DNA of 60,892 nt from a virus (taxonomy: Duplodnaviria > Heunggongvirae > Uroviricota > Caudoviricetes). Positions 909 to 45,206 of this stretch are shown here, in pieces. Where the stretch lies: IMG/VR virus record IMGVR_UViG_3300045988_133230; one strand, 5' to 3'. Both the position numbers and the translations under genes were made by a program. Under the pieces are notes generated by a model that had not been told where the DNA came from, did not search any database, and was given only the letters and a program-made list of their open reading frames with translations. Each line of letters opens with the position of its first letter. Position 1 is the first letter of the stretch.

Positions 909-1937
909 TCACATGACCTCGATAATCTTATTCACAAACTCCATGTTAATACTATCATAAGAATCCTTTAAGCGCGAAGAAAAACCATTTATTACACTCT
1001 TTTTGATAAATGTTTTTTCCAGCCCATCCAGCCTTACATTTGAAGTTTGAAGGTCAACTTGTCTTGTGAATCCTGTCTCTGGCTCTTTGAATTTTATTTT
1101 TATTAAGTCATAACCTCCATTTTTATCTTCTTTAAAGAAGTTTGAGACAGATTTTATCCATCCAAGGACATTGTTGGGGCCATGGTTTGGTACTAAGCGT
1201 AAAGTACTTTCTTTAGGAATAATAGCCGCGTTAACATCTGGCGCATTAATAGTTCTGTATTCATTCTTTACCAAAACGACATCAGAAAGTCCTTCTTTAT
1301 TTATTTTATTGAACAAATCTTCATCTAACTTTCCAGATATATCAAAGACTGGCTTGTATAATACTTTTATTTTTTTCTTTGTTAAACTTGATACTTCATT
1401 TGTTAAAGTGTTACATGAAAAGATATCTTCATTATCTTTGGCTACGTTAAAGAGAACTTTATTCAGGAAACCATTTATTTTTGCTGTGGAAACTCCTGGT
1501 ATTGGCATAAAACTCATGTCATACGTTCGCATATTTCCGTCTAGAGAAATAATCATATGAGAAGAAACTTCGTAACCTTCACCTTCCTCATGTTTTGGTG
1601 ATATTTCGGTGCGAACATCTGTATTAATGTTTTTTAATACAGTAGTGCTTCCATTTTTATCTACAGCATTAATTAAAAGACCAAGATGGCTGGGTTTTTT
1701 ATCGGCTCTGTTTGATAAGAATATTACATCTTGTAAAGTTAAAACTAAGTCTCCTTTTTCATAACTGTGCATCATTGCTTTACAATGTACTATTTTAGAA
1801 GCAAGTTCACGCATTGTTGGTACTGGGCAAACACAGTTCGATCTGATGCTATCATCAATTTTCTGTGTACGGTATTGTGTATCGATCGTAATAGTATGAT
1901 GAGTTATTACTCTACTGAATGCGTCCAGTGTAGCCAT
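909..1937 (-). CDS. hypothetical 342-aa soluble protein, first gene of cargo operon
   Basis: Long ORF in a visibly AT-rich block between Q and the late leader; no catalytic motif recognised; stop overlaps RBS of downstream gene. Confidence 0.6.
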   Translation of the reverse strand: MATLDAFSRVITHHTITIDTQYRTQKIDDSIRSNCVCPVPTMRELASKIVHCKAMMHSYEKGDLVLTLQDVIFLSNRADKKPSHLGLLINAVDKNGSTTVLKNINTDVRTEISPKHEEGEGYEVSSHMIISLDGNMRTYDMSFMPIPGVSTAKINGFLNKVLFNVAKDNEDIFSCNTLTNEVSSLTKKKIKVLYKPVFDISGKLDEDLFNKINKEGLSDVVLVKNEYRTINAPDVNAAIIPKESTLRLVPNHGPNNVLGWIKSVSNFFKEDKNGGYDLIKIKFKEPETGFTRQVDLQTSNVRLDGLEKTFIKKSVINGFSSRLKDSYDSINMEFVNKIIEVM

Positions 1938-1995
1938 TTCAAAATATCCGCTTCTTTGCTGTTTTTATATGGAGAAAGTTTACATAACCACTAAC

Positions 1996-2076
1996 GCGTA
2001 CGCAAAAACTATTGTATCGTGTTAAGAGTGGTTACTTCGCCACACAGCTTAAACCCGCCGTCGAGCGGGTTTTGTC
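1996..2076 (+). promoter_or_regulatory. late-operon leader (pR'/qut-like) with hairpin terminator 2051-2076
   Basis: About 80 bp near-identical to 45118-45196 upstream of the second lysis cassette; GC hairpin aaacccgc/gcgggttt followed by T-rich tract. Confidence 0.6.
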
Positions 2077-2224
2077 GTCTCTGGGGCTGGGGATTCGTTG
2101 GTCCTGGCCTATTCCGCAGTTATCCATTGGCTCGGCTTCTTTGACGTTTCCGCTTCTGATTTGCGGTACATGATGTTCCCTCAATTTGCACCTGCTGTAT
2201 CAGCGAGGTGAGAGATAACTACAA

Positions 2225-2551
2225 ATGCCTCATAACCCAAATACCTGGCTGGAGTTGGTCCAGAGCTGGTGGCGTGGAGACACACCACTGGGCGCAGTGA
2301 TTATGTCGATTGTTATGGCTGGATTGCGTATTGCCTATTTTGGCGGTGGTGGTGGGTGGAAGCGAAAAACGCTCGAGATTTTGCTCTGTGGTGCTCTGAC
2401 GCTGACTTTTGCATCCGCTCTTGAGTATGTCGGATGGCCTAAATCTCTTTCTGTTGCCATTGGTGGCGGTGTTGGGCTGATTGGTGTCGATGCAATTCGT
2501 GGGGCTGCAATGCGAGTAATCGGTAACAAATTTGGTAGCTCGAAGGAGTAA
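2225..2551 (+). CDS. S: holin, lambda S-like
   Basis: 108 aa, hydrophobic helices and charged C-terminus, directly upstream of endolysin. Confidence 0.8.
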   Translation: MPHNPNTWLELVQSWWRGDTPLGAVIMSIVMAGLRIAYFGGGGGWKRKTLEILLCGALTLTFASALEYVGWPKSLSVAIGGGVGLIGVDAIRGAAMRVIGNKFGSSKE

Positions 2552-2554
2552 TTT

Positions 2555-3031
2555 ATGCAGGCACTAAATTCCCAGCGTAAAGCTTTCCTCGATATGGTGG
2601 CATGGTCAGAAGGAACGGATAACGGACGGCAGAAAACCAGAAATCATGGTTATGACGTCATTGTAGGCGGAGAGCTATTTACTGATTACTCCGATCACCC
2701 TCGCAAACTTGTCACGCTAAACCCCAAACTCAAATCAACAGCCGCCGGACGTTATCAGCTTCTTTCACGCTGGTGGGATGCTTACCGTAAACAGCTTGGT
2801 TTGAAAAACTTCTCCCCCAAAAGCCAGGACGCAGTGGCATTGCAGCAGATTAAAGAGCGTGGCGCTTTACCGATGATTGATCGCGGTGATATCCGTCAGG
2901 CTATTGATCGTTGCAGCAATATCTGGGCGTCGTTACCTGGTGCAGGTTACGGTCAGTATGAACATAAAATCGGTGACCTGATTTCCCGGTTTAAAGAGGC
3001 TGGTGGGGTGGTAAATGAAGTTGAGCTATAA
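2555..3031 (+). CDS. R: endolysin, lambda R-like lytic transglycosylase
   Basis: 158 aa; N-terminal MxALNSQRKAFLDMxAWSEGTDNGRQKT matches lambda R from memory. Confidence 0.85.
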   Translation: MQALNSQRKAFLDMVAWSEGTDNGRQKTRNHGYDVIVGGELFTDYSDHPRKLVTLNPKLKSTAAGRYQLLSRWWDAYRKQLGLKNFSPKSQDAVALQQIKERGALPMIDRGDIRQAIDRCSNIWASLPGAGYGQYEHKIGDLISRFKEAGGVVNEVEL

Positions 3032-3449
3032 GCTGGTTATCTCTGCTTTCTTCGTTACTGTCATTGGTTCTTTCATCTGGTCAGCCAACCACTACTACAG
3101 CAAATATCAGTACGAAAAGAAACGTGCTGATGAAGCTGTACAAAATGCCAAATTGGCAACTGCCATTACCAATAACGTCCTGCAATCACTGCAAATTGTC
3201 AATACAGTACTGGAGGCTAACCAGCATGCAAAACAGCAGATCGCACTGGAGTCACAGAGAACCCAGGAAGATATCAAAATGGCTGTTGCGGATGATGATT
3301 GTGCTTCACGTCCTGTGCCTGCTGCCGCTGCTGACCGGTTGCGGAAGTACGCGGACAGTTTACGTAACAGTACCTCCAATTCCGCTTCCAGCTACTCTGA
3401 CTTTGGAAACACCAGTACCGCACATACCCGATACTCTGACCTATGGTGA
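3015..3449 (+). CDS. Rz: i-spanin Rz
   Basis: N-terminal TM then coiled-coil-like sequence; overlaps endolysin stop; contains embedded lipoprotein ORF. Confidence 0.75.
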   Translation: MKLSYKLVISAFFVTVIGSFIWSANHYYSKYQYEKKRADEAVQNAKLATAITNNVLQSLQIVNTVLEANQHAKQQIALESQRTQEDIKMAVADDDCASRPVPAAAADRLRKYADSLRNSTSNSASSYSDFGNTSTAHTRYSDLW

Positions 3450-3540
3450 CAGTCTGGAGTTGAATGTGAGTCTGATGTCAGCGTTGGAACAGTGTAATCT
3501 TGATAAAGCGACAATAAAAAATATCGACGCTAACAAGTAA
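3292..3540 (+). CDS. Rz1: o-spanin Rz1 lipoprotein (overlapping Rz in +1 frame)
   Basis: MMIVLHVLCLLPLLTGC lipobox followed by proline-rich sequence; start assigned by me at 3292. Confidence 0.55.
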   Translation: MMIVLHVLCLLPLLTGCGSTRTVYVTVPPIPLPATLTLETPVPHIPDTLTYGDSLELNVSLMSALEQCNLDKATIKNIDANK

Positions 3541-3602
3541 AAGGGCATGTAATTTCATAGAGATGATTCCATGTTAATATTGCTCTTTTAACTGGAGGTA
3601 TT

Positions 3603-19839: not shown

Positions 19840-20884
19840 ATTTCAGCGCCCGACGCTGGCAGAAAATATCAGTATGCTCCGTAACGATTTATTCGCCAGG
19901 CTGGACGTCAGCGACACGCTCCGGCGCATGGATGAAGACGTGCGGGCAAAGGTGTATGCGGCGGCGCTGCATACGGTTTACGGTTACATCGATTATCTGG
20001 CAATGAACATGCTGCCTGACCTGTGCGATGAGTCCTGGCTGGCGCGACATGCTGCGATGAAACGGTGTCCGCGCAAGGGGGCCACGGCTGCCAGCGGGTA
20101 TATGCGCTGGGAAGGTGTCAGCGATGGCCTGAAGGTGACCGCCGGGAGTGTTATTCAGCGCGATGACCTGGTTCAGTACACGGCAACTGCCGATGCAACC
20201 AGCGCCGGTGGTGTCCTGCGCGTGCCGATCGCCTGCTCAAGTGCAGGAGCGGTCGGTAACGCTGACGACGGTACGTCATTAATCCTGGTCACGCCGGTGA
20301 ATGGTCTGCCGTCTTCCGGCGTGGCAGACACTCTGACAGGTGGATTTGATACTGAAGAGCTGGAAACGTGGCGCGCCCGCGTCATTGAGCGGTATTACGG
20401 GACGCCTCAGGGCGGGGCTGACGGGGACTATGTAGTCTGGGCTAAAGAAGTGCCCGGCATTACCCGTGCATGGACATACCGCCACTGGATGGGAACGGGG
20501 ACTGTCGGTGTGATGATTGCCAGCAGTGACCTGATTAATCCCATTCCGGAAGAATCAACGGAAACGGCGGCAAGACAACACATTGAGCCACTGGCCCCGG
20601 TGGCAGGCTCTGATTTGTATGTATTCAGGCCGGTGGCGCATAAAGTGGATTTTCATATCCGCGTGACGCCGGACACACCGGAAATACGGGCTGCCATCAC
20701 CGCCGAGTTGCGTTCGTTCCTGCTGCGTGATGGTTATCCGCAGGGAGAACTGAAGGTGTCGCGTATCAGTGAGGCGATTTCCGGTGCGAACGGGGAATAC
20801 AGCCATCAGTTGCTTGCACCGGCGGACAATATCTCCATTGCAAAAAATGAACTGGCGGTACTGGGGACGATTTCATGGACGTGA
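19826..20884 (+). CDS. baseplate J-like protein
   Basis: 352 aa; corresponds to the e14 jayE region. Confidence 0.75.
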
Positions 20885-21459
20885 CAAACGATGATTACAT
20901 CCATCTGTTGTCGGCACTGTTGCCCCCCGGTCCGGCGTGGTCAGCCAGCGATCCGGCGATTGCCGGTGCGGCACCGTCATTAACCCGCGTTCATCAGCGT
21001 GCGGATGCCCTGATGCGGGAGCTGGATCCGCGCACCACCACCGAACTGATAAATCGCTGGGAGCGTCTGTGCGGCCTGCCGGATGAATGTATTCCCGCAG
21101 GGACACAGACCCTTCGCCAGCGTCAGCAACGACTGGATGCGAAGGTTAACCTGGCGGGCGGCATCAATGAGGATTTTTACCTTGCACAGCTTGCTGCCCT
21201 GGGCAGACCAGACGCCACCATCACGCGATACGACAAAAGCACGTTCACCTGCTCATCGGCCTGTACTGACGCGGTGAATGCGCCGGAATGGCGGTATTAC
21301 TGGCAGGTCGACATGCCAGCCGCCACCAACACCACCTGGATGACATGTGGCGATCCCTGTGATTCCGCACTGCGTATCTGGGGCGACACCGTTGTCGAGT
21401 GTGTGCTTAACAAACTCTGCCCGTCGCATACCTACGTAATTTTTAAATATCCGGAGTAA
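20875..21459 (+). CDS. tail protein (YmfQ / Mu gp48-like)
   Basis: 194 aa preceding tail fibre. Confidence 0.65.
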
Positions 21460-21462
21460 TCC

Positions 21463-22047
21463 ATGCATCGTATAGACACGAAAACCGCGCAGAAGGATAA
21501 GTTCGGCGCGGGTAAGAACGGTTTTACCCGTGGTAACCCCCAGACCGGCACACCTGCCACCGATCTGGATGATGACTACTTTGACATGTTGCAGGAGGAA
21601 CTTTGCAGTGTTGTGGAGGCATCCGGTGCCAGCCTGGAGAAGGGGCGGCATGACCAGCTGCTTACAGCGCTTCGTGCGCTGCTGTTAAGCCGCAAGAATC
21701 CGTTTGGCGATATCAAATCGGATGGCACGGTGAAAACGGCTCTCGAAAACCTTGGTTTGGGAGAAGGTGCTAACTGGGTTATGTTACCTGGAGGAATGAT
21801 AATTCAGCGTGTTTATCTTGGATTTCCTATTGGCACTAATGTAAGACATATAACTTTCCCCCGGTCGTTTACAACAACGAACTATTCCATCTCAATTAAC
21901 TGGAATGATATCGGTACTGTAACAACTGAAACACAATCACCAGCAAATGTGGCGGTTGTTCATCAAACAAAATCATTAACAGGGGCCAGCATCTGGCAGG
22001 CAGGTCCCGGGGGATTTAATGTGGACATTATAGCGGTGGGGTATTGA
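21463..22047 (+). CDS. tail fibre protein (constant N-terminus plus variable tip)
   Basis: 194 aa; contains the gix-like crossover site within ENLGLGEGA coding sequence. Confidence 0.7.
21740..21765. promoter_or_regulatory. candidate Hin/Gin-family crossover site (12-2-12)
   Basis: CTCTCGAAAACC-TT-GGTTTGGGAGAA; both half-sites fit the TTxTCxAAAACC pattern of gix/hix sites. Confidence 0.5.
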
Positions 22048-22048
22048 T

Positions 22049-22477
22049 ATGTACGTATGGAGCGCTAAAGCAAATGGCTTTTTCCCCATATCGGAGAAAG
22101 AAAAATTTGAGGCATCAGGTCTGTGGCCTGATGATGGTGTAATAGTCAGTGAGGAAGAACATAAAAAGTTATTTATGGATATTCCACCAGGAAAACAGAT
22201 TGGAACACTGAATGGAAAACCAGCACTGATAGATATTCCTCAGCCGACCAAAAAGGAATTAATAGCTATTGCTGAAGTTAAAAAATCCCAATTACGGGAA
22301 AAGGCTGACAGTGAAATATCCTGGCGTCAGGATGCTGTTGATGCTGATATCGCAACTGATGAAGAAGCTACAACTCTCACCCAATGGAAGAAATACCGTG
22401 TGCTGCTGATGCGTGTTGATACGTCAACAGCACCCGATATTGAATGGCCTACGCCTCCGGCAGTTCAGGCCAGATGA
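22049..22477 (+). CDS. tail fibre assembly protein
   Basis: 142 aa with C-terminal TSTAPDIEWP motif shared with the convergent copy. Confidence 0.7.
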   Translation: MYVWSAKANGFFPISEKEKFEASGLWPDDGVIVSEEEHKKLFMDIPPGKQIGTLNGKPALIDIPQPTKKELIAIAEVKKSQLREKADSEISWRQDAVDADIATDEEATTLTQWKKYRVLLMRVDTSTAPDIEWPTPPAVQAR

Positions 22478-23042
22478 CATCCGGCGCGGTGCTGGTATCT
22501 GTTGCCGTCACCGCGTCAATGTAATCCAGCACGGCGTTAAGTCGGGTTGTTTCTGCCTGAGTCAGTTTCCGTCCGGCCTGTAATTTCAGCTGAATCAGAC
22601 TAATGGAAGCCATTGCTGCATCAATCAGTGACTGGCGCTGTGCTTCTGCCGCGTCTACTGCGGCACTGTGTTGTGCCTCAGTGTCTGTCACCCATTTCTC
22701 ACCATCCCATTTATCGTATGGCGTTAACGGTGAAAGCGTGACATAACCGTCTTTGATGGCACCGATATAATCCACTGTAACAGCTGCACCATTTTCGATT
22801 GAGTAAACAGTCTCATTGCGATGGTCTTCCTCATGGCTCCATCCCTTACCTGTAAATACCGTCACTCTTCCCAGAATGTTTTCGCCCGGGTCAATACCAG
22901 TTGAACAGGCGGGCATACTTACGCCAGTATTAATATATTCATCAGACCAGCCCGTATACTCAGATGTTTCAGCATCATAATAAAAACAACGCATATCGCC
23001 CGGCACTGTAGCCAGCCCATTTTCATCAAAAACAGGTTTCAT
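22449..23042 (-). CDS. tail fibre assembly protein (alternative, inverted orientation)
   Basis: 197 aa, C-terminal TSTAPDVIWPELP; convergent with 22049-22477. Confidence 0.7.
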   Translation of the reverse strand: MKPVFDENGLATVPGDMRCFYYDAETSEYTGWSDEYINTGVSMPACSTGIDPGENILGRVTVFTGKGWSHEEDHRNETVYSIENGAAVTVDYIGAIKDGYVTLSPLTPYDKWDGEKWVTDTEAQHSAAVDAAEAQRQSLIDAAMASISLIQLKLQAGRKLTQAETTRLNAVLDYIDAVTATDTSTAPDVIWPELPEA

Positions 23043-23524
23043 TATTTAGCCCTCACCAGAAAGTTAAATGCAATATTTCGCGGTCTGACAGCAACAAAAT
23101 TCACACCATCACCCACAGAGTTACTGGTGAAATTAAATCGTGAAAATCCTGGCTGATTTCCGGCGATGCCATCATGAAAGTTAATTGCGTGTCCCGCACC
23201 TTCGCCTATATTCCCGGCAAACTGAGAAAAGTTTGTAGCTGCCTGCCAGCTTAATAATTCGCGACCACCATCTGCACCTCGCCCGTCATCCCAGACACGA
23301 ATGAAATCACCGCGTGCGTCAGGTAATGCCAACGCCGGAAACACTTTCGCCAGCACAGGGTAATCAGTGGCAGAAAATTTCGCCCCGTTGAACTTCAAAA
23401 ACACCATACTGGACCAGCTGTCGATTACAGTATTTGGCATTGCAGCGGACGCCCAGAAGAACGGAACGCCAATAGCTGGAGCACCTTCTCCCAAACTGCG
23501 ATGGCTCACTGCTGATATGTGCAA
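23042..23524 (-). CDS. alternative tail fibre C-terminal segment (promoterless variable tip)
   Basis: Begins ...SLGEGAP matching the junction residues of the plus-strand fibre; inverted 17-bp identity at 23480-23496. Confidence 0.6.
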   Translation of the reverse strand: MHISAVSHRSLGEGAPAIGVPFFWASAAMPNTVIDSWSSMVFLKFNGAKFSATDYPVLAKVFPALALPDARGDFIRVWDDGRGADGGRELLSWQAATNFSQFAGNIGEGAGHAINFHDGIAGNQPGFSRFNFTSNSVGDGVNFVAVRPRNIAFNFLVRAK

Positions 23525-23718
23525 TCGACGGGGAGTTCAGGATCAAGCGATATCGGACTCATCCTCAACACCACCTGATTAATTTGGAGAGCGGGAGAAG
23601 GGAGATGCTACCAGTAGATGATGACGGTTACGGTTCTGCTCCCGCGATATTCGGGGTGATTACTTACATCATTAATGATGCGAGGAACGCGGAGTTTGAT
23701 GATTGTCCGGTGATGTAA

Positions 23719-24387
23719 TCATATTGGCGTTATTAGTTCGGCGCCCTGATTTTTCACATTCCCGACGGCACGCGTTACGGCGTGCCATATAAATTTATCA
23801 GCCGGTACAACACCGTCGGCTGCAATTTCCGCTGCTTCTTTCCCTCCAACATCCTGCCTCATCCATTCACGCGCGGCTTCCGGTAGCAGTACCAGTGGTC
23901 GTCTGTCGTGAATATCAACCAGTCCTTTGTCAGCTGCAGCTGTAACTATCAGGAAACCTTCTGCTTCATCTCCACGTTCGAATGGTGTGCTGCCGATCGC
24001 CGCCATAAAAATCGGCTGACCGTCTGCCCGGTGAATAAAGTAGGGTTGTTTTTGGTCGCCTTCCTTTTTCCACTCATACCATCCATCAGCAAAGCAAATT
24101 GCGCGGCCATGCTGCCAGAGTGGTTTAAACATTCTGCTGGTGGCAGCAGTTTCAGACCGTGCATTAATGAGCGGCGGTTTATCCCACCAACCGGGGGCGT
24201 ATCCCCAGATAACTGGATCAAGATGCAACTGCTCATCACGTTCGCTCAGAAGCAGAACTTTTGTTCCTGGCGCTACGTTGAATCTTCCGATGGGTTCTGG
24301 ATCGTATGGAATATCGCGTTCTGATTCATCAGCGAGAAGGGCAAGATAATCTTCACGGGTCATTGACTGTGAAAAGCGTCCACACAT
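23719..24387 (-). CDS. SOS response-associated peptidase (SRAP/YedK family)
   Basis: 222 aa starting MCGRF with catalytic Cys2; family features recognisable by eye. Confidence 0.8.
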   Translation of the reverse strand: MCGRFSQSMTREDYLALLADESERDIPYDPEPIGRFNVAPGTKVLLLSERDEQLHLDPVIWGYAPGWWDKPPLINARSETAATSRMFKPLWQHGRAICFADGWYEWKKEGDQKQPYFIHRADGQPIFMAAIGSTPFERGDEAEGFLIVTAAADKGLVDIHDRRPLVLLPEAAREWMRQDVGGKEAAEIAADGVVPADKFIWHAVTRAVGNVKNQGAELITPI

Positions 24388-24586
24388 AGAAACCTCCAGC
24401 CGTATGTCAGACTGAAAGTATAGGGCAGTTAGAAAAAGTGGTGCACACCGTTAAAGATTTAAAAGGAGCATGTAAGGTAAATCGGAATGATGGTTTTGTG
24501 AATTGATGAATTCCGAAAGTGAAAAAGATACTTAATCATTGTGTGCTAGCGATACGGGGGCAACATTTGACGGGGTTTTTCCCCTG

Positions 24587-24708
24587 TAATTCCCCATTGC
24601 TTCCCCGTTCAGAAAACAGGCAAAAAAACCAGCCGTAACAGGCTGGTTCTTCGAGGATTTTTGGTCGGCACGAGAGGATTTGAACCTCCGCCCCCCGACA
24701 CCCCATAG
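24587..24708. repeat. 122-bp direct repeat copy 1 (tRNA 3' fragment plus terminator)
   Basis: About 97 percent identical to 25757-25879 by manual alignment. Confidence 0.85.
24662..24708 (-). other. tRNA-Pro-like 3' fragment (att-type remnant, not a complete gene)
   Basis: Reverse complement reads ...GGAGGTTCAAATCCTCTCGTGCCGACCA: T-arm, G72, A73 discriminator, CCA; no D-arm or 5' acceptor strand present. Confidence 0.65.
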
Positions 24709-24784
24709 TGTCGTGCTAATATTCTGATGGCCTATATGCGTCTACAGTAAGTTGATAGCATCATTCGTCGGTCGCTTCGTAGTC

Positions 24785-25600
24785 TCACATACGGATAAAA
24801 TTTTTTCTATTGATTTTGTCTCTATCAGAGCCATAAATGATGGTTGCAAAAAAACGACCTAATTCAAGATGGTGGAAGTGATTATCTTTTGCTTGAACTG
24901 TCATTGAGTCTAATATGTTATAGATGCATTCTATGATATGAATAACTAATAAAGTGCGATAACCAGCAAGCATTTCACTTCTTTTAAGTAAATAATTTAA
25001 ATCCCCTGCAGAGTTTATATGGTTTCTGTCTTCATCATAATATCCAAGCACATAGCATGGCAGTGTTTCACCATAGCTTCGGTATTGCTCGCATTTTTTA
25101 TCAATTATATTTTTTTGTCTTTTTGTTAATATTTTATCGTAAATGCTCTTATCGATTTCATTATACCATTGCTTCATGGGATCATTGTCGTTGTCATTAG
25201 TAATGAAATCAATATTACTATATCTTGATGAATTTGCAAAATTAGTTAACAACTCCATCACTCTGTAGTGAATTTCATTTAAGCCAGAGGGAGAATCAAC
25301 TCTCTCAATGACTAGGTTGAATAACTTGCTTAAGTTATGACCGTAATCTCTTAATTTTTTGCGTGATGTATATTTTCCATTTTTATTATAATCATCAAGC
25401 ATAAGGCAAAGTTTCATAAGCCTTTCTAATCCTAAACTGATGCCGGATAATGCTTGAAAATACAATCCTCTACTTGCAAAATTTGCTTTCCTTAGGGAAG
25501 TGAGCCCTATGCCTAATAATTGTCTTGAAAAGTCAACCTCATCAACAAATCTTCTGTATTTTTCATCCATAAAAACCTCAGTCAGCCAATTAATATTCAA
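24785..25600 (-). CDS. hypothetical 271-aa protein (cargo, possible abortive-infection type)
   Basis: AT-rich ORF lying between the two 122-bp direct repeats; no recognisable motif. Confidence 0.55.
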   Translation of the reverse strand: MNINWLTEVFMDEKYRRFVDEVDFSRQLLGIGLTSLRKANFASRGLYFQALSGISLGLERLMKLCLMLDDYNKNGKYTSRKKLRDYGHNLSKLFNLVIERVDSPSGLNEIHYRVMELLTNFANSSRYSNIDFITNDNDNDPMKQWYNEIDKSIYDKILTKRQKNIIDKKCEQYRSYGETLPCYVLGYYDEDRNHINSAGDLNYLLKRSEMLAGYRTLLVIHIIECIYNILDSMTVQAKDNHFHHLELGRFFATIIYGSDRDKINRKNFIRM

Positions 25601-25756: not shown

Positions 25757-25879
25757 TAATTTCCCCATTGCTTCCCCGTTCAGAAAACAGGCAAAAAAAA
25801 CCAGCCGTAACAGGCTGGTTCTTCGAGGATTTTTGGTCAGCACGAGAGGATTTGAACCTCCGCCCCCGACACCCCATAG
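25757..25879. repeat. 122-bp direct repeat copy 2, includes tRNA-Pro-like 3' fragment 25834-25879
   Basis: See copy 1; four point or length differences. Confidence 0.85.
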
Positions 25880-26073: not shown

Positions 26074-27042
26074 CTAGAATGATGCACAATCTTTAAGCTC
26101 TTTTTCTAGTTGTTCAACCAAGTCACAGCATTTTTTGATAACATCTTTAACTGACTCTGAATCTAACTTATGAAAATTACCATTTTTTGTTTTACCTGCT
26201 CGATGAACTAAGTCATGCCTAATTAACACGCTTTTATAAACTTCTGTGAAAACAGGGAATTTAATACCAAAGGTATCTCGATACATGCCACTTACTTTTG
26301 GCAGATTATGATAAAGAACACTCTTCATAGACTCTATCGCTTGAGACTCTATTTGTTCATGCCTTATAAATAATTCAGAAAGTAAGAATTTTTCTGTATT
26401 GTAATCTTTGAAGGTTTCAACAAAATTTCTCAAATTAGTTTGGCTACCATGAATTAGGGAAATAAATCTGTCACATAAATATGTTTCCAAGGAAGTTATT
26501 GTATTGGCATATAGCATATACGACATTTGTATTTGTAAAGTGCTATCAATTTTTAACTGAGCATCATTTAGTTTTATGGCGTTCTGCATACTATTTTGGA
26601 ATGTCATATAGACATCTCGTTCAGATAGCGTTCGATCATCAGAGTACTGCATATCAATAACATCTAGAATGCGCTGTTCAATTAATGAAGGTCTATTCAA
26701 CTGTAATATATCTATAGTCGCATGTCCTCGCTCAGTTAAACCTTCTAAATATCCATTTTTATTTTGTTTTATATGTTCTGAAAAACTTTCATTTAAAGGA
26801 TTTAGAAGTAATGGTTTGCCATTTTCATCGAGAGGAAACTGATCTTTTTTAATCATGCTACATGCCTTACAAGCGATGAGCAGGTTGTCTGTAGCATCTT
26901 GGAAGTCAGTATACTTTGATTTTGGGAAAAAACGATCAACATCCGCCATCAATGGTTCATAAAGTTTAGTGCCACAGTAAGCACATTGATGCTTAAACTT
27001 CTCCCATAGTTCAAGTTTAAACGTTTTATAATTCTTATTCAT
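26074..27042 (-). CDS. HNH-domain protein, 322 aa (N-terminal HNH-like nuclease, C-terminal unknown domain)
   Basis: CAYCG...DVDRFFPKSKY...NLLIACKACS resembles a Zn-finger HNH core; AT-rich; located where e14 carries mcrA. Confidence 0.6.
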   Translation of the reverse strand: MNKNYKTFKLELWEKFKHQCAYCGTKLYEPLMADVDRFFPKSKYTDFQDATDNLLIACKACSMIKKDQFPLDENGKPLLLNPLNESFSEHIKQNKNGYLEGLTERGHATIDILQLNRPSLIEQRILDVIDMQYSDDRTLSERDVYMTFQNSMQNAIKLNDAQLKIDSTLQIQMSYMLYANTITSLETYLCDRFISLIHGSQTNLRNFVETFKDYNTEKFLLSELFIRHEQIESQAIESMKSVLYHNLPKVSGMYRDTFGIKFPVFTEVYKSVLIRHDLVHRAGKTKNGNFHKLDSESVKDVIKKCCDLVEQLEKELKDCASF

Positions 27043-27486: not shown

Positions 27487-27651
27487 CTGCTGCGCCATAT
27501 GGGCTGGACTGAAGCCGCAGACCTGATTGTTAAAGGTATGGAAGGCGCGATCAACGCGAAAACCGTAACCTATGACTTCGAACGTCTGATGGAAGGCGCT
27601 AAACTGCTGAAATGTTCAGAGTTTGGTGACGCGATCATCAAGAACATGTAA
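27487..27651 (+). pseudogene. icd: icd 3' fragment (duplicated attachment segment, icdC-like)
   Basis: Encodes ...[53 protein letters not shown], the C-terminus of isocitrate dehydrogenase; upstream sequence is unrelated and AT-rich. Confidence 0.85.
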
Positions 27652-27717
27652 TCTCTACATGTGTTAAATATTGAAACGGGCGTATAACACGCCCGTTGTT
27701 TTATGATGATGTAAAAT

Positions 27718-27764: not shown

Positions 27765-28907
27765 CTATGCTGTTTTGATATCTACGATAATCCAGTCTTT
27801 ACCACGATCATCATTGTATCGGTCGGTCATTTTTCTGGATTTATGGCCTAACAACTTTTGCGTATCCAGACCCTGTTCCCGATATAACCGTTCTGACAGA
27901 GATCGCTGCTCATGAAATGTGGGCGCAGTTCCTTGCTCCCATTTTATGCCACATTTTTCCCTGGCCTTTTTAAAAGCCGTTGTCAGAGTATTCGCAGAAA
28001 CCTGGTCTCCTCTGTTTGCTTGAGAGGTTGTGTGACGGTAATGGACCAGATATTTACTAACAACAGCATCCCTGCACTGAGATATAACTTCACGAAGGGT
28101 AATATTCAGAGCATCGCATTTCAGGTTAAGCGGAATAGCAAGTTTTGAACCGGTTTTTTCCTGAGTAATGTGCAACATGTCGTCCCAGATATCAGAGAAT
28201 TTCAAATTGCAGATATCGCCTAAACGTTGTCCAGTGACAAGAGCAAGTAGCATCCCACATTTTAAATAGGGCTGCCGTCTGCTTACGCTGTCAAATATTG
28301 CCTGCCATTCGGGCAGTGATAATCTTTGGCGGTTTACTCGATTTCGCGGTTGTTTTGTTGCCTGCGCTGGGTTAAATCCTGGCGGAACATGTCCTGCGTG
28401 TTGTGCTTCTTTGAAGACGTCGATTAACACCATTCTCACGACTTGCGCCATCCTGTTATGACCTTCAGCCTTTACAGCATCAATTATTTCGGCAATATCA
28501 AGTGCGGTAATATCCTTGAGGTGTTGCATTCCACAATGCTCACGGAAAAGACGAATGGGTTTGCCTTTTTGCCGATAGGAGTTGGGTCTTAGTTCATTAT
28601 GTTGCAGCCTGTCCTCCTGGATAGAAATATATTTATCAAGCCATTCTGTCACCGTAATGTCTGAGCGCCTGCCTTTCATTCTTTCCAGACGCTCATTGAC
28701 GCTTAATATTTGTCGGGTACGTTGTTCAGCAATAATGATATTTGCTTCAGTAGCAACTTGTTTTGCTTCATTCTCATCAGTTCCTAAGCTATGAAAACGA
28801 CCGGATAGTGGATGTTTGTATTGCCAATATACCTTTCCGGTTCGCTTATCTAATTTGCAATATAAATTGGGTATAGAGATTTTGTGAGATCGGGGTCTAG
28901 CAGCCAT
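27765..28907 (-). CDS. int: tyrosine integrase (e14 IntE-like, icd-targeting)
   Basis: 380 aa with C-terminal R...HxxR...Y catalytic region (LLGHKSRKMTDRY); adjacent to icd fragment. Confidence 0.9.
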   Translation of the reverse strand: MAARPRSHKISIPNLYCKLDKRTGKVYWQYKHPLSGRFHSLGTDENEAKQVATEANIIIAEQRTRQILSVNERLERMKGRRSDITVTEWLDKYISIQEDRLQHNELRPNSYRQKGKPIRLFREHCGMQHLKDITALDIAEIIDAVKAEGHNRMAQVVRMVLIDVFKEAQHAGHVPPGFNPAQATKQPRNRVNRQRLSLPEWQAIFDSVSRRQPYLKCGMLLALVTGQRLGDICNLKFSDIWDDMLHITQEKTGSKLAIPLNLKCDALNITLREVISQCRDAVVSKYLVHYRHTTSQANRGDQVSANTLTTAFKKAREKCGIKWEQGTAPTFHEQRSLSERLYREQGLDTQKLLGHKSRKMTDRYNDDRGKDWIIVDIKTA

Positions 28908-43663: not shown

Positions 43664-44746
43664 TTAGAACTGATAAACCAGACCTACAGCGACGATGTCG
43701 TCGGTATCAATACCAGCTGTTTTGGTAAACTTACTATCGTCAATTAAGTTGATTTTGTAATCAACAAAAGTGGACATGTTTTTATTAAAGTAGTAAGTAG
43801 CACCGACATCGACATACTTGACTAAGTCTCGGTCACCATGAACACCAAGGTCTTTACCTTTTGACTGAAGGTAAGCAACAGATGGGCGCAGACCGAAGTC
43901 AAACTGATATTGTGCTACTGCTTCAAAGTTTTGTGCTTTGTTTGCAATATGGTTATTACCAAAAACGGTCATATTCTGAGTTTCAGAATATGTGGTAGCC
44001 AGATAGATATTGTTCGCATCATATTTCAGGCCTGCAGCCCATACTTCCGCATTTTTGCCGGAGGCATTGAATTTGCTCTTACCATAGGCGACCTGACCGT
44101 CAGTGCGATCTGATTTAGCATAGGTTGCACCCACGCCGAATCCTTCATACTCATAAGTAGTGGAGAAACCGAAACCATCACCATTGGCTTCAGTTACGTC
44201 AGTGCGGTCATTTTTACCCTGATACTGAGCAGCAAAGTTCAGGCCATCGACCAGACCAAAGAAGTCGTTGTTACGATAAGTTGCAACACCAGTAGTGCGA
44301 CCAGTCATGAACACATCTGTTTGGGTCCAGGTATCACCACCGAATTCTGGCAGAACGTCAGTCCACGCACCGATGTCGTATGCTACACCGTAGTTACGGC
44401 CGTAATCGATTGAGCCGTAATCACCAAATTTCAGGCCTGCAAATGCAAGACGGGTTTTGTCTTTGGAAGAACCTTGAGATTCAGCACGGTTGCCTTTGAA
44501 TTCATATTCCCACTGACCGAAACCAGTCAGTTGATCGTTGATTTGGGTTTCACCTTTGAAGCCAAGACGGGCATAAGTAGTATCACCATCATCTGCATCA
44601 TTAGAGGAGAAGTAGTGCTTGGCATTAACTTTCCCGTATAGATCCAGCTTGTTACTGTCTTTATTATAAATTTCAGCTGCCTGAGCAGACATCGCCATCA
44701 GTACTGATGCAGCTACAGCAGAAATTGCCACTGTTAATTTTTTCAT
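43664..44746 (-). CDS. outer-membrane porin (OmpC/NmpC/Lc family)
   Basis: Signal peptide [23 protein letters not shown], beta-barrel porin sequence ending ...GLVYQF; start at ATG 44746. Confidence 0.85.
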
Positions 44747-45117
44747 TGTACGCCCTTTTTTTGAACTATTATTAAAAAATGATGTCACTGCGCGATAAAT
44801 ATTCATCTAATCAATGTGATTATTTCAAGATGTAAGTTTTAGTTTCTCATTTAATTTGTGAAGTAGATCTCTATTTTTATCTGAACCTTTTCTATCTAAT
44901 CCTATTCATGGCTCTTGTTTGAACGAAAATAAATCTATTAGCTAATTTATATTAATGGCACTTATTTATAAGCGCTCTATAATTCTTTAGCTTAATTTAA
45001 ACAAACTAAAAATAACATCGGAAATTATTCATTGGTTATTTGTTGAAGTTTTCTTATGTATTTGTGGTGGTGTTTTGAACACTCGGTGGCATTCTCACAA
45101 ATATCATTTAGTAGTTT

Positions 45118-45206
45118 ACGTACGTAAAAAATTGGTTATGCTGTTAAGAGTGGTTACTTCGTCACACAGCTTAAACCCGCCGTCGAGCGGGTTTTTCCAT
45201 TTTTTG
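45118..45206 (+). promoter_or_regulatory. late-operon leader (pR'/qut-like) with tR' hairpin 45173-45206
   Basis: Near-identical to 1996-2076; hairpin followed by T-run. Confidence 0.65.

Follow-up and report, generated by a model that had tools for sequence, protein, structure and literature searches.

The window analysed here is the whole 60.9-kb stretch of DNA (60,892 nucleotides), whose list of open reading frames includes, at positions 21463-23524, a four-gene tail fibre cassette composed of stf, tfa, a convergent tfa' and a start-less stf'. The features of the cassette and its surroundings are listed below, with the evidence for each in brackets.

20875-21459, plus strand: ymfQ/Mu gp48-like baseplate gene (Pfam Phage_Mu_Gp48, E 2e-26)
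21463-22047, plus strand: stf, the expressed tail fibre gene, 194 aa (ORF list)
21740-21765, plus strand: pixL, the intact left recombination site, 26 bp (12-2-12 consensus match)
21755-21771, no strand assigned: left arm of an inverted repeat (perfect 17-bp repeat)
22049-22477, plus strand: tfaP-type fibre assembly chaperone, co-expressed with the StfP tip (Pfam Caudo_TAP, E 7e-33)
22449-23042, minus strand: tfaE-type chaperone, convergent and silent in the present orientation (Pfam Caudo_TAP, E 4e-27)
23042-23479 (ORF to 23524), minus strand: start-less StfE-type tip, silent and intact, 145 codons plus stop (ORF list)
23480-23496, no strand assigned: right arm of the inverted repeat (perfect 17-bp repeat)
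23496-23497, no strand assigned: deletion junction, 1,503 bp lost, with a 1-bp microhomology (C) (BLAST against fEC.1 and CDF6; junction sequences; sibling annotation)
23497-23718, plus strand: C-terminal remnant of a umuD-like S24 peptidase pseudogene, 73 codons (sibling DNA match)
23719-24387, minus strand: SRAP (YedK-like) SOS-response-associated peptidase, an intact cargo gene beyond the right edge of the deletion (Pfam SRAP, E 7e-51)

The window belongs to a group of near-identical E. coli prophages that also includes those of strains fEC.1, CDF6 and AH01 (referred to below as the siblings), whose DNA is 99-99.9% identical to it and which share its fibre tips, chaperones and cargo. Positions 4135-27704 are collinear with the ~40-kb fEC.1 prophage at icd, and we found both an icd 3' end with an icd' duplicate (27499-27651, also annotated in the siblings) and a Mu-like baseplate module with ymfQ-stf at its end, as is characteristic of the e14/SfV family. 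Judged by these sequence features, the cassette is the host-range switch known as the invertible P segment, carried by an e14/SfV-family myovirus prophage that is of full length and sits at icd. As in e14, the baseplate gene directly precedes the fibre gene; it is labelled YmfQ in the siblings and in K-12. The fibre gene itself consists of a constant N-terminal part (21463-21751), a repeat-encoded LGLGEGA stretch reaching to 21771 and a StfP-type tip (21772-22047); its product differs from that of fEC.1 by one amino acid and has no internal stops, both chaperones are identical to their fEC.1 counterparts, and the StfE-type tip has neither amino acid differences nor stops. Pfam matches to the two fibre tips are weak (Gp53-like_C at 24.3 bits, with a cutoff of 24.9, and Collar at E 0.0016). 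The split fibre gene typical of Din-family segments is thus found here, with the N-terminus outside and two convergent pairs of tip and Tfa inside, and all four reading frames of the earlier note, which likened their arrangement to the Mu G and e14 P segments, are present.

Among the closest described systems is the P segment of the cryptic prophage e14 in K-12, which has the same gene order (ymfQ-stfP-tfaP-tfaE-stfE'), the same icd location and the same icd' duplicate, and whose PinE is 87% identical to the sibling Pin. Its left 26-bp site and the inner half of its right site are identical to those of the window, so that the alignment to e14 proposed in the earlier note recovers both the gene order and the left site. 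In contrast to the window, however, e14 in K-12 has kept pinE as well as the core and outer half of the right site; its fibre tips and most of its tfa sequence are different alleles, the DNA homology ending at 21773 and continuing only in short patches; its cargo is mcrA, as opposed to dinI/umuD'/SRAP/HNH; and it is a 15-kb remnant, while the prophage here is of full length. The serotype-converting Shigella phages SfII, SfI, SfV and SfIV carry a ~97% identical virion module, which spans the genes from the terminase up to and including the constant fibre part. The homology of SfII, SfI and SfV to the window ends at the pix site, at 21766-21773, which is also where the K-12 stfP homology ends and marks the boundary between the constant and variable parts; SfIV additionally matches patches that reach 22730.

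When the whole 60.9-kb window was scanned with the Gin/Pin 12-2-12 consensus, allowing at most 3 mismatches, pixL was the sole match, with none in 100 shuffles, which bears out the earlier description of a 26-bp site at 21740-21765. This site is composed of an outer half (21740-21751), a TT crossover dinucleotide (21752-21753) and an inner half (21754-21765), and reads CTCTCGAAAACC TT GGTTTGGGAGAA, the same as the left site of K-12 e14, where the right site reads TTCTCCCAAACC AA CGTTTATGAAAA. No second full 12-2-12 site was found in the window by the consensus scan, whereas fEC.1, CDF6 and AH01 each have two inverted 26-bp sites. What is present on the right is a perfect inverted copy of 21755-21771 at 23480-23496, confirming the 17-bp stretch noticed earlier; in the intact siblings this repeat is 20 bp long (left arm 21752-21771). 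Of the inner half-site of the right recombination site, pixR, 11 of 12 nucleotides are kept, at 23486-23496 (TTCTCCCAAAC). Scored with a position weight matrix, the inner half of the resulting hybrid site reaches 12.8 bits and the new sequence in the place of the outer half -13.0, compared to 11.4-16.7 for real halves.

These half-site scores, together with the junction sequences, confirm that the outer half-site is missing, but the right partner is not degenerate, as had been proposed: it is truncated by a deletion of 1,503 bp that becomes evident by comparison with the siblings. A BLAST search with the window showed that fEC.1 and CDF6 have an additional 1,503 bases placed exactly at 23496|23497, with identities of 99.8% (fEC.1) and 98.6% (CDF6) over window positions 21000-23496 and of 99.9% and 99.8%, respectively, over 23496-24800. 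In fEC.1 this extra stretch opens as ...TTCTCCCAAAC|C AA CGTTTATGAAAA, so that what the window lacks is the final base of the inner half-site together with the AA core and the whole outer half-site CGTTTATGAAAA. Also gone are pin (183 aa) and dinI, a small pseudogene, and the initial 308 nt of the umuD-like pseudogene. Because sibling identity breaks off sharply at 23496 and is found again 1,503 bp beyond it, the right partner is a normal pixR cut short after 11 nucleotides of its inner half by a deletion, and not by mutational decay. The four reading frames are intact and nearly identical to those of the siblings; the deletion is therefore recent, and the silent tip shows no decay.

The junction at 23496|23497 was found in none of 5,426 complete E. 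coli genomes, and neither in GTDB species representatives nor in metagenome contigs. Its absence from all other genomes and metagenomes searched would be expected if it were an artefact of assembly or of a chimeric read, with the true genome keeping pixR and pin intact, and assemblers are known to struggle with invertible segments that have repeats at their ends. However, the join is unlike a repeat collapse, as a 1-bp overlap links unique sequences that lie 1.5 kb apart on the same strand, and both flanks are otherwise clean and collinear with fEC.1; we therefore regard an artefact as very improbable.

The sequence to the right of the junction accounts for a second element of the cassette, a short ORF (23584/23606-23718) for which an origin as the remnant of a third fibre tip had been put forward. 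While this reading frame does exist, it falls inside the segment 23497-23718, whose DNA is 99.9% identical to the 3' part of the fEC.1 gene annotated as 'S24 family peptidase (frameshifted)' and which reads, in frame from 23497, CDGSLLICAIDGEFRIKRY...DDCPVM. Because the window from 23497 onwards continues the S24 pseudogene of the siblings, the short ORF is assigned to the 3' end of a umuD-like gene. The full sibling reading frame matches Pfam Peptidase_S24 (PF00717) with an E-value of 3e-7, although the sibling gene is itself frameshifted; the 73-codon remnant alone has no Pfam match and does not present an S24 profile with the catalytic serine and lysine. By its sequence, the piece in the window is a pseudogene fragment of the S24 family and not a functional member, and should be labelled in annotation as a umuD-like pseudogene fragment. 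The SRAP gene that follows is also present in the siblings.

In line with the earlier note, we found no invertase gene. A search for pin/gin/hin homologs within the 60.9-kb window gave a best E-value of 0.14 by tblastn with the sibling Pin and of 0.43 (5.5 bits) with a Pin/PinE/Gin profile run against all six-frame ORFs, and the window lacks the adjacent serine invertase gene with Resolvase and HTH_7 domains that accompanies such segments. In the siblings, Pin (183 aa) sits precisely at the deleted position, matches Resolvase (E 3e-50) and HTH_7 (E 3e-14), and shows 87% identity to PinE and 75% identity to Mu Gin. In the Hin system the enhancer is located some 100 bp away from hixL (PMC3798978). 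By analogy with hin and gin, the 5' part of pin is presumed to have held a Fis-dependent cis enhancer, which would have gone with the deletion; a crude scan for Fis motifs in the sibling pin, K-12 pinE and Mu gin yielded no discriminating signal. A loss of pin by another route, truncation by IS26, was observed in strain I4.

The intact form of the switch is functional, since AH01 carries the identical segment precisely inverted. In this otherwise same prophage the inversion lies exactly between both sites, pixL being the left boundary of the inversion that separates AH01 from fEC.1, with the outer half-sites unmoved and the inner sequences swapped, and the fibre is a protein of 248 aa composed of the constant part and the StfE tip, followed by tfaE. 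Inverting the window virtually produces a 248-aa fibre that is one residue off the actual fused fibre of AH01. Both orientations thus occur among near-identical prophages (fEC.1 and CDF6 versus AH01), and the two fusion junctions were found in other complete genomes as well, 23 and 236 respectively. Phase variation of the e14 P segment has been shown in culture (PMC4272514), and PinE, PinQ and PinR each invert it at TTGGTTTGGGAGAAGG / CCTTCTCCCAAACCAA (PMC12529663). A metagenome census for non-canonical junctions, run with a 15-mer of the inner half-site, tallied 117 matches of the class 'other' against 3 canonical left sites, almost all of them due to chance, and a real StfE-tip context at 5 loci only.

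By these comparisons, Pin in intact relatives exchanges strands at two inverted 26-bp sites, one within the fibre gene and one just upstream of pin, flipping ~1.75 kb and thereby joining the first ~97 constant fibre codons either to StfP (with TfaP) or to StfE (with TfaE). In the window, the 1,503-bp deletion has taken the right core and the outer half-site, along with pin and dinI and the 5' end of the umuD-like pseudogene, and the loss of core, outer half-site and pin leaves StfP/TfaP on and StfE/TfaE silent for good. Of the earlier statement that the switch is frozen unless an invertase acts in trans, the first part stands, as the half-site and pin are gone, while the escape clause concedes too much. 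Rescue by an invertase in trans appears unlikely because the hybrid right site offers neither a core nor an outer-half-like sequence (12.8 versus -13.0 bits), because the cis enhancer, by analogy with hin, would have lain in the deleted pin, and because of the behaviour of deletions in K-12, where removal of stfP or stfE, each of which takes one repeat, abolishes the effect of PinQ in trans, and where a pinE deletion leaves the segment locked though pinQ remains (PMC12529663).

The same evidence bears on the combination of claims with which the earlier note had explained the locus, namely a degenerate right site, taken here as decay by point mutation, a short ORF that may derive from a third fibre tip and a switch that a trans-acting invertase could still flip. 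Its starting points, the repeat of 17 bp and the lack of an outer half-site on the right, are real, and Pin paralogs acting in trans do flip the e14 segment in K-12 (PMC12529663). Against it stand the break in sibling identity at 23496 and its resumption 1,503 bp on, which indicate a deletion, the identity of the short ORF as the 3' end of an S24/umuD-like pseudogene, the hybrid right site with neither core nor outer half, and the locking of the K-12 segment by loss of one repeat or of pinE (PMC12529663), so that we give this explanation hardly any credence. We instead favour, with a probability of about 0.9, an e14-type P segment locked by deletion with StfP/TfaP on and with rescue by an invertase elsewhere unlikely. 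The cassette is accordingly an ordinary decayed copy of an already described system, the e14 P segment, held in a deletion-locked state.

How the deletion arose is a separate matter. On the left it begins 1-2 bp short of the AA crossover dinucleotide of pixR, and serine invertases make a staggered cut at the core dinucleotide. Conservative recombination by Pin between pixR and a quasi-site was considered and is ruled out: the far end of the deletion, within the umuD-like pseudogene, is not pix-like, ranking at ~1,000-3,500 of 5,274 positions scored with the pix/gix matrix and hence no better than random, and a conservative exchange would not have left the junction 1 base out of register. A literature search for deletions at Cin quasi-sites gave no relevant paper.

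Two origins are then to be weighed. The deletion may be a chance event of replication slippage or microhomology in non-essential cargo, unrelated to the invertase, to which we would give about even odds. The 1-bp microhomology (C) at the junction and the distal end that is not site-like both speak for it, as does the loss of pin by other means elsewhere, e.g., the IS26 truncation in strain I4; on the other hand, roughly 0.2-1% of random deletions should have an end this close (2 bp or less) to the cleavage position, a rough estimate, not computed, that assumes a dispensable stretch of ~2.2 kb. Somewhat less probable, though a serious candidate, is that Pin made an abortive cut at its own right site, whose bottom-strand cleavage position is 1-2 bp from the deletion edge, followed by illegitimate joining to a position 1.5 kb away, which would have deleted pin itself. 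If this tentative scenario were true, it would represent an error mode by which a serine invertase turns a reversible switch into a fixed allele, with the host range locked. That the deletion edge coincides with the cleavage point gives, in this respect, a small hint as to how invertible switches vanish.

Other members of the wider group, Mu G/Gin, P1 C/Cin and Salmonella Hin, also have 12-2-12 sites and an invertase gene beside the right site, as in the intact cassette. The Mu G segment follows the same logic, with a constant fibre N-terminus outside and two convergent pairs of tip and chaperone inside, but the fibres here are shorter (194 or 248 aa, as compared to 504 aa for Mu S, encoded by a 1,515-bp CDS) and the system of the window is incomplete. 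Laboratory strains equivalent to the locked state are the Keio delta-pinE, delta-stfP and delta-stfE mutants of K-12, whose P segment is locked because either pinE or one of the repeats is missing (PMC12529663); in contrast to these engineered mutants, a single natural deletion here takes both pin and half of the right site.

On the favoured reading of a segment locked by deletion, the prophage can show only the StfP-type fibre tip, a consequence that is slight beyond correct annotation. The e14 P segment has been tied to phage defence through chimeric fibre proteins made by inversion (PMC12529663); a naturally locked allele should be without an inversion-dependent defence phenotype and would thus provide a ready natural control. 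In the neighbouring cargo, PADLOC gave no match for the SRAP gene or for a 271-aa ORF, and the HNH protein matches PtuB-like models.

Virion-module homology to the K-12 e14 prophage and to SfII, SfI and SfV ends at 21766-21773, at the recombination site or the repeat, so that the pix site within stf is also a mosaic boundary for the exchange of fibre tips between phages. Two fibre genes of relatives carry the RefSeq label 'integrase', namely a fused 248-aa tail fibre in E. coli AH01, consisting of the constant part and the StfE tip (L003, the AH01 sequence, 2849-3595; NZ_CP055251.1 1881848-1882594), and the start-less StfE tip of strain I4; both are apparent mis-annotations.

The cargo region of the first prophage contains a repeat-flanked ORF and a nuclease gene:

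24587-24708 and 25757-25879, direct repeat of ~122 bp, copies 97% identical
24785-25600, minus strand, 271-aa ORF between the two copies
26074-27042, minus strand, 322-aa HNH endonuclease

Each copy of the repeat includes a 3' fragment of tRNA-Pro together with its terminator, and ARAGORN detected no intact tRNA. The ORF between them had no matches in Pfam or PADLOC, and the same repeat-ORF-repeat arrangement is found in the sibling prophages of E. coli fEC.1, CDF6 and AH01. The repeats look like att-site scars of a small element integrated within the cargo region. The HNH endonuclease occupies the position of mcrA in K-12 e14. In PADLOC it hits models of PtuB (Septu), with E = 1e-23, and one of a type IV methyl-directed restriction enzyme, with E = 2e-11. 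Since the adjacent ORFs show no evident PtuA partner, the protein probably acts in defence as a solitary nuclease.

At the far end of this prophage, a fragment of icd is directly followed by another integrase and then by a second prophage:

27499-27651, icd' fragment, end of the first prophage
27765-28907, minus strand, lambda-type integrase, 380 aa

In contrast, the siblings have iraM in place of this integrase and prophage, and fEC.1 homology to the window stops at 27704. From this arrangement, two prophages appear to lie in tandem at icd. The two prophage regions share a repeat, and the second includes an ORF with a signal peptide:

1997-2073 and 45119-45195, direct repeat of 79 bp, 90% identical, common to both regions
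43664-44806, minus strand, 380-aa ORF

The latter looks like a prophage-borne porin gene, given an OmpC/NmpC-like N-terminus, a likeness judged by eye on the N-terminal sequence only.
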